Shown: positions 1 to 2,081 of the stretch, piece by piece
Layout: each line of letters begins with the position of its first letter
Numbering within the stretch: position 1 is the stretch's first letter
NCBI GenBank assembly: GCA_964372485.1
Contig: CAYJQI010000001.1
Location: forward strand, 192,001 to 256,000
DNA: 64,000 bases
Reading direction: 5' to 3'
From: an uncultured archaeon
Lineage (GTDB): Archaea > Aenigmatarchaeota > Aenigmatarchaeia > CG10238-14 > SCSR01
Notes under the pieces: model-generated
Databases searched by the model: none
The model's input: the letters and a program-made list of their open reading frames with translations, nothing else
Told to the model about the DNA's origin: nothing
Translations under genes and position numbers: made by a program

Positions 1-2081
1 AGACTAGTTACACTTACGGGTTGAGGGATACTACATTCACACTCATTGACAAGATAACAAATGCCCTCGATCATCAAACTGACTTCAAGTATGATCTTGG
101 AACTGGCAATCTTCTTTGGAAGAAACAAAACGGGATATACACTTACTTTACTTACGACACTTTCGGGAGAATTTCTAAAGAAATACAGCCGTTTGATTCG
201 AGTGACCTTCCTACTAAAAGTTACAATTATTCATTCGACGGCGCTGCGCCTGAATCTATTGTAATAACTCAAAGAATTTCCGGGAACAGGACATACGATA
301 CTTACTTTTACTATGATGGTCTTGGAAATTTCATCCAGTTCAAAAAACCAAGTGATGGAAATAGGCAGATTGTCAAGAATCTTTTCTATGACGGATTGGG
401 TAGAGTTTCTGCAGAAAGCAATCCTTACTTTACAACATTCTCAACTGGATTAACAACAACGCAGAATTCTAATTTCATCAATTACACCTATGACTCATTA
501 TCCCGAGTGACTAATGTAACGAATCCTGATGGCAATAGCTCTAAGATAGTCTTCAACCGCTGGAACATCACTGCATACGACGAGAACAATCATCGAAAGA
601 TGTACGTCACCGATGCATATGGAAGAATAGTTAATGTTCTTGAATACAACAACGACCCTGTATTGAAACAGAACTTCGAGACCGACGCGTATATCACGGT
701 GTATCAGTATGATACTTCCGACAATCTTGTAAAGATTACAGATGCATTGGGCAACCAATTTGCATTTGTTTACGATTCTCTCGGAAGAAGGATTGAATTG
801 AGGGATCCTGATCTTGGGAATTGGAGTTACATATATGATGTTGCTGGGAATTTGATTCGTCAGGTTCAAGTTGGTGGAGGGAATCTTGTCACTGGAGATG
901 GATATTACAGGGAGTACAATGAGCTGAATCAACTGACGAAGATCAGGAATGGTTCCACGGTCACTGCAGGGCAATTGGAGAATTACACCTATGACCCGTT
1001 CGGCCAGAGGATCAAGATCATGCGAAACGACTCCGTCAAAACTATCGTCTACACTCCATTCAAGGAATTAACAAGAATAGTCAACACATCGGGCACGTAT
1101 GATTTCGTTTATGTCTACGACGAAAATGGATTGATCGCCAAGATCGATCCGGGGAATACGAAGAGGTATTACCATCTTGATCATCTGGGATCAACATCAT
1201 TAGTGACGAGGCAGACTGGAAGTTCTTTCGAGAATACGCATTATTCTCCTTACGGGGAAGTCCTTAGCGGAGGAGTGAAGGAGGATAAGTTGTACACAGG
1301 GCAGTTCTCCGATGATTTGGCTGACCAGTATTATTATGGGTGCAGGTATTACAAGCAGGGAACTGGGCAGTTTGTACAGCCTGATCAGTTCATTCAAGAT
1401 CCGTACAATCCACAGAATCTTAATCGGTATGCATACACGCTCAATAATCCATACAAGTATACCGATCCGACGGGGTGCATCATACAATTTGGACAGTTGG
1501 CAATAGGTACGAGTCTAATTGCTTCATACTTTACAGTAGTTTATAGTGATGTATTAACGCAACTGGTTACTGGGTTTATTTCCAGTATTAAAGCACCGTC
1601 ACAATTGAATCCGCAACCTTTAACTCCTGTAGATCCAGCAAAACCATCAACTATTACACCGCCAACAACAGGAGGAAATGTTGCTCCTAGTATTAATCCT
1701 AGTAATCAACCTTCACCAAGCGATATTATTGGTGAGACTATCGAGAGAGGAATGCAAGGAGTCACTCAAGCTTCTTCACAAGGTAGACAAACTACGATAA
1801 CAGAATCCTTTTGGGATAAAGGAACGTTTCAATCATCTAAAGACTCCATTACATATCATAACAAAATCCATGGTAAGGGATTAACATCTGAAGAACAAAC
1901 TAAAAGAGGTATCGATCTCTGGAATAAATACAAAAATGGCGATCCTTCCATAAAAACCGTTAGTGAAAAAGTACCTATTGCTGGAGGAAGAGAAGGTGTT
2001 AAATTAGTTGATAGATCTAACAATTGGTTTGGAATATACACAAAAGAAGGTAAAATTGTATCTACTGGATTTCGTAAATAG
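1..2081 (+). CDS. Rhs/YD-repeat polymorphic toxin, 5' end outside the window. The Rhs core ends at DPTG (nt 1464-1475) and is followed by a variable C-terminal region of about 200 aa
   Basis: The frame is open back to nt 3 (..YTYG), so the TTG at 21 is not the true start. Many YD repeats (YTYDSLSRVTNVTNPDGN, YDSLGRRIELRDPDLGNWSYIYDVAGNL, YTYDPFGQRI). Rhs-associated core signature YYHLDHLGSTS..YSPYGE..LYTGQFSD..YYYGCRYY..GQFVQPD..NLNRYAYTLNNPYKYTDPTG. Confidence 0.9.
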   Translation, partial: TSYTYGLRDTTFTLIDKITNALDHQTDFKYDLGTGNLLWKKQNGIYTYFTYDTFGRISKEIQPFDSSDLPTKSYNYSFDGAAPESIVITQRISGNRTYDTYFYYDGLGNFIQFKKPSDGNRQIVKNLFYDGLGRVSAESNPYFTTFSTGLTTTQNSNFINYTYDSLSRVTNVTNPDGNSSKIVFNRWNITAYDENNHRKMYVTDAYGRIVNVLEYNNDPVLKQNFETDAYITVYQYDTSDNLVKITDALGNQFAFVYDSLGRRIELRDPDLGNWSYIYDVAGNLIRQVQVGGGNLVTGDGYYREYNELNQLTKIRNGSTVTAGQLENYTYDPFGQRIKIMRNDSVKTIVYTPFKELTRIVNTSGTYDFVYVYDENGLIAKIDPGNTKRYYHLDHLGSTSLVTRQTGSSFENTHYSPYGEVLSGGVKEDKLYTGQFSDDLADQYYYGCRYYKQGTGQFVQPDQFIQDPYNPQNLNRYAYTLNNPYKYTDPTGCIIQFGQLAIGTSLIASYFTVVYSDVLTQLVTGFISSIKAPSQLNPQPLTPVDPAKPSTITPPTTGGNVAPSINPSNQPSPSDIIGETIERGMQGVTQASSQGRQTTITESFWDKGTFQSSKDSITYHNKIHGKGLTSEEQTKRGIDLWNKYKNGDPSIKTVSEKVPIAGGREGVKLVDRSNNWFGIYTKEGKIVSTGFRK

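Follow-up and report, generated by a model that had tools for sequence, protein, structure and literature searches.

An exchangeable tip of an archaeal Rhs protein: a probable colicin-like RNase with an immunity gene beside it

The subject of this report is the C-terminal end of an Rhs protein encoded at the left edge of a 64,000-nucleotide (nt) stretch of DNA, here called the window, from an uncultured archaeon of the Aenigmatarchaeota. Positions 1476-2081 of the window probably encode an exchangeable colicin-like RNase tip of a secreted archaeal Rhs cocoon, with the immunity gene next to it. Very probably, the tip and the following gene constitute a toxin-immunity pair. In the structural model, the core of the tip has a Colicin-like BECR fold, and by analogy with members of this fold class, there is a good chance that the tip is an RNase toxin. 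The pair recurs in archaea and bacteria, and the Rhs proteins of related archaea carry other tips after the same core. The following features are involved:

3-1475, forward strand: C-terminal part of the Rhs/YD-repeat shell, including the Rhs-associated core and terminating in NNPYKYTDPTG
1476-1589, forward strand: Cys and an uncharged hydrophobic pre-toxin stretch of 37 amino acids (aa), at the start of the predicted released fragment
1590-1724, forward strand: 45-aa linker rich in Pro, Thr and Asn (12 Pro and 11 Ser/Thr per 45 residues)
1725-1793, forward strand: non-conserved lead-in of 23 aa, outside the best-matched stretch in most family matches
1794-2078, forward strand: conserved toxin core, 95 aa modelled, with a Colicin-like BECR fold in the model; predicted metal-independent RNase
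1857-1859, 1869-1871 and 2001-2003, forward strand: key codons for His, His and Lys (the last on beta2)
2040-2042, 2052-2054 and 2061-2063, forward strand: key codons for Thr, Lys and Ser (beta3/beta4)
2079-2081, forward strand: TAG stop of the Rhs gene, overlapped by a Shine-Dalgarno-like motif, AGGTG (2080-2084)
2090-2497, forward strand: predicted cognate immunity gene, 135 aa, start ATG at 2090 with GTG at 2084 as an alternative; no Pfam match

The toxin family and its predicted fold

The protein ends with a tail of 118 aa (1725-2078), followed by the TAG stop. An exhaustive phmmer search (HMMER) of 1.84 billion representative proteins with a cut-off at an expectation value (E) of <= 1e-3 yielded 33 matches, the best of them at 1e-8. 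Two matches, P0019 and P0023, were set aside as spurious; each is a repeat protein with three weakly matching stretches. In the remaining 31 of the 33, the toxin domain lies close to or at the C-terminal end, with the match spanning query residues ~26-118. A Pfam scan recognised an upstream module in seven of the ten longest matches. The carriers include a 2150-aa TcB/TcC-like Rhs protein (P0013) encoded on a contig with archaeal-type genes, a 1998-aa Rhs protein, a short Rhs-core fragment (P0016), a protein with a PT-HINT pre-toxin domain and a Laminin_G_3 protein. A second Rhs-core fragment (P0008) was recognised from its sequence together with a precomputed TEN_YD-shell match. Two proteins of the toxin family have an eCIS_core domain. 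One of them is encoded at locus L009 (JGI 3300057044, 1193-5225), where the eCIS_core-linked toxin is followed by an immunity gene and adjoins Pvc16_N and phage-sheath genes. Because of this arrangement, the toxin family is also considered cargo of an extracellular contractile injection system (eCIS). Such a modular and always terminal placement is the signature of a presumptive polymorphic-toxin tip.

A pattern scan of species genomes, which used a subset of the family alignment and is biased towards Actinobacteria, located the family in Streptomyces, Kitasatospora, Salinispora, Micromonospora, Nonomuraea and one Chloroflexi metagenome-assembled genome. At two loci, L017 (2938-3598, Salinispora mooreana) and L025 (1439-2093, the Chloroflexi genome), the core is a free-standing or orphan open reading frame (ORF) of 96-102 aa, and the immunity gene overlaps the toxin stop. 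Such an arrangement recalls toxin-antitoxin pairs or orphan cassettes.

The family alignment (A1) comprises 30 sequences including the query, and conservation begins at the Trp encoded at 1812. W7, H22 and G80 are invariant, S18, Y21, H26, G27, G29, T36, K70 and G86 near-invariant, and K25, T83, K87 and T/S90 common, which can be condensed into the motif W.K.tF....S..YH..KHG.G.t..YT ... G..G.KI ... GiYT..GKIvT. The window protein retains every one of these positions except K25, where it has Ile and a Lys one residue earlier; in addition, it has Gln at position 35, where the family usually has Tyr. The original prediction, made from the letters of the window, had pointed to conserved His and Lys residues in YHNKIHG. 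Both His residues proved to be conserved (30/30 and 29/30), and the family's Lys position (20/30) is occupied by Ile here, next to the Lys. A profile built from the other 29 members and run against all 4517 ORFs of the genome returned the window domain with an E of 4e-24 and no other ORF. This means, the toxin domain is not a chance ORF tail.

The original prediction could not assign the domain to any known toxin family by motif, and at the sequence level this was borne out. Neither the 118-aa tail nor the 95-aa core has a match in Pfam, NCBIfam or the PDB sequences, and the 30 relatives show nothing consistent in Pfam, NCBIfam or PHROGs. The family consensus has no Pfam match. The family profile, searched against the PDB sequences at E <= 10, returned nothing relevant and did not find colicin D.

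A likely relationship emerged at the level of the modelled structure. A single-sequence AlphaFold run on the tail reached an overall pLDDT (predicted score in the local distance difference test) of 60; residues 1-51 remained below 50, and residues 52-118 formed a helix and four strands. With alignment A1, the 95-aa core was modelled at a pLDDT of 96.2 and a predicted template modelling (pTM) score of 0.87. Its elements (helices 15-26 and 32-47, strands 53-62, 66-73, 78-83 and 88-93) correspond to a pre-alpha helix, an alpha helix and beta1-4. In a Foldseek search of the PDB, the first match was 8ey4_A, the CdiA-CT toxin of E. coli O32:H37 (E 1.8e-3, probability 1.0, template modelling (TM) scores 0.56/0.60; 81 alignment columns, 81/88 residues). 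It was followed by five chains of the colicin D tRNase from four entries (1v74_A, 1tfo_A, 1tfk_A, 5znm_A and 5znm_B) with TM scores of 0.45-0.49 and E of 0.2-0.5. The single-sequence model returned the same top PDB matches. In BFVD, an unnamed phage protein of 456 aa ranked first (probability 1.0, TM 0.65 on the query), and a phage protein labelled Colicin D ranked third. The Foldseek check of an AlphaFold model that the original prediction had proposed thus led to a CdiA-CT toxin and then to colicin D. Its guess of a small BECR-type toxin is supported by the model topology, these matches and the conserved His, and the helix-then-strands layout that it had read from the sequence reappears as pre-alpha, alpha and beta1-4 in the alignment-based model. 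The toxin core is consequently modelled as a Colicin-like BECR domain.

The Colicin-like class of BECR proteins is characterised by a pre-alpha helix that precedes the alpha-beta1-4 core and by active-site residues on the pre-alpha helix and beta4 (bioRxiv 10.64898/2026.08.28.747851). In this class, a Lys often stands before the conserved His, and tRNAs are the main substrates of the characterised members (bioRxiv 10.64898/2026.08.28.747851). An alcoholic residue is conserved on strand 4 in many BECR RNases, and the residues listed for colicin D are K607, K608, H611, D614 and S677 (Zhang et al., 2012). When sequence positions are placed on the model elements, H22 (30/30), K25 (20/30) and H26 (29/30) fall on the pre-alpha helix and K87 and T/S90 on beta4. 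The tip is read as a metal-independent RNase because of its Colicin-like topology, these conserved residues and its basic core (isoelectric point (pI) 9.66). The active site would be composed of the His-x3-His of the pre-alpha helix (YHNKIHG) and of Lys, Thr and Ser on beta2-beta4. If colicin D and CdiA-CT toxins are a guide, the core may act as an endoribonuclease that cuts tRNA or another RNA in the cytoplasm of the target cell, and cleavage would leave a 2',3'-cyclic phosphate.

Several observations weigh against the assignment as an RNase. Searches with sequences and profiles found no link from the family to any characterised RNase. The fold scores are modest for 95 aa (best E 1.8e-3; colicin D E 0.2-0.5 with TM < 0.5). 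One active-site pocket is putative, its residues being placed by sequence position on the model elements, and the window protein has Ile where 20/30 relatives have Lys. RNase activity across the family is deduced from fold class and conserved residues. Furthermore, with a pI of 9.1 the immunity protein is basic, which sets it apart from many RNase inhibitors.

The best-surviving alternative makes use of some of these points. It proposes a BECR-like toxic tip that is not a colicin D-type RNase: a DNase, a toxin that acts on the ribosome or on a translation factor in a stoichiometric manner, or one that needs a cofactor of the target cell like some CdiA-CT toxins. In its favour, the indications of RNase chemistry are confined to the fold class and the conserved His, Lys and Thr, the fold scores are modest, the searches found no characterised relative, and catalytic residues vary widely across the BECR fold (bioRxiv 10.64898/2026.08.28.747851). 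On the other hand, all characterised Colicin-like members named in the same preprint target RNA, mostly tRNA. On the pre-alpha helix and beta4, the invariant His, the second His, Lys and Thr/Ser make up the usual acid-base set of metal-independent RNases, and the pI of the toxin core is basic. This alternative is regarded as rather improbable.

The immunity gene

The ORF behind the tip begins 8 nt past the Rhs stop and is preceded by AGGTG (2080-2084); its end overlaps the next gene (TAATG). At each of the other toxin loci opened, an ORF of 109-140 aa starts ~0-60 nt from the toxin end. These downstream ORFs have the motif [FY]..(P.P)....D....L...D..vAG in common. A profile of ten of them, from which the window ORF was excluded, was run against all 4517 stop-to-stop ORFs of the genome and gave a sole match, C1:194078-194494 (window 2078-2494), with an E of 8.9e-9. 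At 23/23 other loci with room downstream, a member of the immunity family directly follows the toxin on the same strand. Thirteen of the 23 loci had no part in building the profile; many actinobacterial loci are closely related, and the set amounts to ~7 independent contexts. The toxin-immunity loci span archaeal, Actinobacteria, Chloroflexi and eCIS contexts.

Two members of the immunity family are informative. In P0066, a metagenomic protein of 201 aa, the immunity domain is fused at its C-terminus to Pfam Colicin_immun (PF09204; E 1.8e-17), a fusion such as would be expected between immunity modules. At L010 (1108-1805; Candidatus Micrarchaeota archaeon, GCA_016212475.1), which belongs to another DPANN-type archaeon, two tandem immunity paralogues follow an Rhs fragment with the same toxin family. 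Pfam does not match the immunity family, whose members are annotated as 'hypothetical'. The family has no conserved cysteines, and its composition suggests a helical protein. The immunity protein of the window has no membrane segment. Judged by the conservation of the gene pair, the downstream ORF very probably encodes the cognate immunity protein of the tip. With its 135 aa, it would protect the producer. Because an immunity gene follows the tip, prokaryotic rather than animal cells are the presumable targets.

The Rhs carrier and the pre-toxin segment

The assembly comprises 812 kb in 7 contigs with a guanine-cytosine (GC) content of 35%, a completeness of 89.7% and a contamination of 0.2%. 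A partial archaeal 16S rRNA gene opens the contig (Rfam SSU_rRNA_archaea, 755 bits), and the source organism is a small-genome archaeon of the DPANN type. The ORF that bears the tip extends past the left edge of the window. The full protein has 1645 aa, starts 2857 nt upstream of the window and is encoded at L001:4144-9081; its C-terminal 692 aa lie in the window. In this part, Pfam detects RHS_repeat (E 3.6e-19) and TIGR03696 the Rhs_assc_core (E 6.5e-16, residues 414-491). The full-length protein has a signal-like N-terminus and contains SpvB (E 2.6e-12), five FG-GAP repeats, TcdB_toxin_midN (E 1.3e-23) and RHS repeats (E 2e-22). This domain order points to the architecture of a fused TcB-TcC / Rhs cocoon. 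Upstream of the window, an ORF of 660 aa without a Pfam match (L001 2172-4154) ends ~10 nt past the Rhs start codon; due to this short overlap, both genes are probably co-transcribed.

The Rhs core ends with DPTG, encoded at 1464-1475, and is followed by a Cys codon (1476-1478). Two Asp positions of the core (..GQFVQPD.. and ..TDPTG) were recognised by eye and are taken to be those of an aspartyl autoprotease. Such a protease would cut after DPTG and free a basic fragment of 201 aa and 21.7 kDa, which would stay inside the YD-repeat shell until delivery.

Translation of 1476-2081 reproduced the protein sequence quoted in the original prediction exactly, and both translation and composition agree with its three-part division of the region behind DPTG into a hydrophobic stretch, a Pro/Thr/Asn-rich linker and a terminal domain. 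Two details had to be corrected. The domain is shorter than the ~118 aa proposed, as the first 23 aa are non-conserved and the conserved part comprises only ~92-95 aa (1794-2078). Furthermore, the label 'helix' for the hydrophobic stretch finds no backing in the sequence alone, and neither would that of a membrane span. This stretch (IIQFGQLAIGTSLIASYFTVVYSDVLTQLVTGFISSI; 37 aa, 1479-1589) contains no Lys or Arg and one Asp and has a grand average of hydropathy of 1.25. Its maximum Kyte-Doolittle mean over 19 residues is 1.36 and thus below the usual cut-off for membrane helices of ~1.6, and it is rich in beta-branched residues, with Thr, Val, Ile and Tyr being abundant. Neither the hydrophobic stretch (1476-1589) nor the linker (1590-1724) has a Pfam match, and no homologues of the linker were found. 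A word-seeded homology search with the whole Rhs protein returned only the self-match for the last 201 residues. The GC content drops from 0.43-0.45 in the Rhs-core region (500-1500) to 0.28-0.32 over the tip and the immunity gene (1750-2750), compared to a genome mean of 0.35.

Hydrophobic segments at this place are found in other proteins, too. Seven Rhs-linked homologues have a segment with a Kyte-Doolittle mean >= 1.6 just after the core. A Gly-rich hydrophobic module of ~100 aa (..QL...G.....VSWS.VG.SA..G..) occurs at locus L037 (1830-2573, reverse strand) of G416, a genome of the same genus, and in P0013 (residues ~1905-2020). The modules of P0013 and G416 are 34% identical over 104 aa (E 8e-8), and their toxin domains are unrelated. 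Because it is common to both, the Gly-rich version is a separable module. A similar Gly-rich segment was seen by eye in P0008; Pfam has no match for the module. In the few relatives examined, tips that are accompanied by a membrane-protein immunity gene have no hydrophobic segment. The window stretch is shorter than the Gly-rich modules and not rich in Gly. It was considered as a glycine zipper, and this reading was rejected, since the stretch lacks the GxxxG repeats and thereby differs from the modules of P0013, P0008 and G416.

For the DNase Tde1 of the type VI secretion system, a glycine-zipper region is needed for entry into the target cell (PMC10240207). By analogy, the hydrophobic stretch and the Pro/Thr linker might constitute a pre-toxin module that helps the small RNase to cross the target membrane; the original prediction had already proposed a membrane-entry helper. 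That the stretch aids membrane entry is plausible, with circumstantial support from the segments of the Rhs-linked homologues, and yet rather doubtful: it is below the membrane-helix threshold, has no GxxxG motifs and no homologues. The search for a TcA-like partner (PF18276 and PF03538) found neither in the genome. This is a weak negative, for the control genomes barely responded; PF03538 was missed in them, and PF18276 was seen in E. coli below the cut-off only. A more far-reaching scenario has a smaller chance still. According to it, the uncharged stretch and the Pro/Thr linker would be a self-contained device for entry across an archaeal ether-lipid membrane without a TcA-like injector, which a DPANN-type episymbiont would turn on its host or on competing archaea. 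In that case, the RNase would, as founding archaeal member, stand for a Colicin-like family not yet catalogued, whose substrate and immunity fold would be its own.

The hydrophobic stretch might itself be the toxic part, depolarising membranes or forming pores as does the Rhs effector Tse5, and the C-terminal domain might serve in targeting or regulation. The stretch has 37 aa and is uncharged, and Rhs cocoons can shield hydrophobic pore-forming tips (compare the paper on Tse5, PMC10684867). This alternative is very improbable, because the C-terminal domain occurs without a hydrophobic segment, as a free-standing protein of 96 aa (L025) whose partner belongs to the same immunity family, and also downstream of PT-HINT and eCIS modules. 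Moreover, the immunity protein has no membrane segment, and the stretch is non-conserved and below the membrane-helix threshold.

Cassette exchange and known systems

To compare the cocoon, a 492-aa query segment was used, and 370 other genomes of the phylum were searched (170 genera in all). The cocoon is 75% identical in G416 (a 1670-aa ORF), 67% in G393 (same family, 1669 aa) and 56% in G414. Weaker or partial homologues are present in G414, G355, G411 and G360. The toxin profile has no match in the 370 genomes. In G416, G393, G411, G355 and G360, the tips that follow NNPYKY.D..G differ from the window tip. G416 has a Gly-rich hydrophobic segment, an unrelated tip and an ORF of 111 aa. G393 and G411 have one tip type in common (FSYED..SNRLGR); it lacks a hydrophobic segment and precedes a multi-span membrane ORF of 127-135 aa. 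G355 has a hydrophobic segment, a tip that is nuclease-like by eye and an ORF of 185 aa, and G360 has yet another tip. The tips of G416, G393, G355 and G360 have no Pfam match. Relatives with other tips also have other downstream ORFs, which in G416 and G393 are unrelated to the immunity ORF of the window. Together, the tip and its immunity gene form a cassette that is exchanged between strains, which is classical Rhs behaviour.

The gene downstream of the variable cassette is conserved in relatives. Behind the immunity gene, the window encodes:

2497-4497, forward strand: YD-repeat surface protein without an Rhs core, whose start overlaps the immunity stop (TAATG)

A short ORF with a relic of an Rhs C-terminus (..ENYTYDPFGQRIKIMRNDSA.TTIYTPFKELMRI..) is located behind the immunity gene at L037 (G416:C2:33000-35600), L038 (G393), L039 (G411) and L040 (G355) and looks like a trace left by the replacement of a tip cassette. 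The window lacks such a relic. In G416, G393 and G411, the relic is followed by a homologue of the YD-repeat protein, and the contig of G355 ends earlier. In the window, the YD-repeat protein is followed by an 851-aa sequon-rich surface protein (4537-7092) that carries a Ser/Pro stalk and, at its C-terminus, a membrane anchor.

The least credible alternative, a non-toxic adhesin domain or structural plug of the cocoon with an unrelated small gene downstream, might suit a producer with a reduced genome and many surface glycoproteins nearby, but it is already disfavoured, as the domain and the small ORF recur as a pair in archaea and bacteria, downstream of five or more kinds of delivery module, unrelated tips replace the window tip at the same locus in relatives, and a member of the immunity family is fused to a colicin immunity domain.

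The probable RNase tip can be compared with several known systems. Its best structural match, chain A of 8EY4 (CdiA-CT of E. coli O32:H37), is likewise a small C-terminal polymorphic toxin domain with an adjacent immunity gene. The two have no sequence or profile similarity (16% identity), and CdiA uses two-partner secretion, whereas the tip belongs to an Rhs cocoon. A literature search found no paper on the activity of 8EY4 or of the CdiA of E. coli O32:H37. Colicin D (1V74, 1TFO, 1TFK, 5ZNM) and the tip family have the pre-alpha, alpha and beta1-4 topology, the conserved pre-alpha His preceded by Lys and a strand-4 alcoholic residue in common. The motif of the tip family is YH..KH, that of colicin D KK..H..D. 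Pfam Colicin_D did not match the query, the 30 members or the consensus at E <= 1. The immunity family differs from Colicin_immun/ImmD of colicin D, with P0066 and its second, fused domain as the sole exception. Tox-ColicinD is also found on Rhs and TcdB/TcaC-type carriers (Zhang et al., 2012).

Ntox35 (PF15534), a family with a predicted BECR fold, a conserved 'H, KH', a link to RHS and no assigned immunity protein (Zhang et al., 2012), resembles the tip family in its listed signature, with which H22 and K25-H26 (H...KH) were compared. The tip is not a detectable member of Ntox35: PF15534 has no match in the source genome at E <= 10, none at E <= 0.01 in eight actinobacterial genomes that hold the toxin family and none in 301 genomes of the order of one toxin-bearing Streptomyces genome, and the 30 members have no Pfam match.

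The carrier resembles TcB-TcC/Rhs toxins in SpvB, FG-GAP, TcdB_toxin_midN, the RHS repeats, a core ending with DPxG and a hypervariable tip. In contrast to bacterial Tc toxins, it is archaeal and a single polypeptide, has no TcA-like partner detected in a weak search and is followed by an immunity gene.

In bacteria, an Rhs carrier with a BECR RNase tip and an adjacent immunity gene is a well-known kind of system. The value of the present assignment is that of a useful annotation for an ordinary kind of microbial weapon, and it holds no surprise in this respect. A fold and a likely activity can be attributed to a toxin tip that is absent from curated libraries. In addition, a toxin family (~90 aa) and an immunity family (~115 aa), neither of them matched by Pfam, are paired in archaea, Actinobacteria, Chloroflexi and eCIS loci. 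Their newness is defined by the lack of a Pfam or NCBIfam model. Finally, the relatives show clearly, at a single syntenic locus, how tip and immunity gene are swapped as a cassette in small-genome (DPANN-type) archaea, in which conflict between cells has been little studied.

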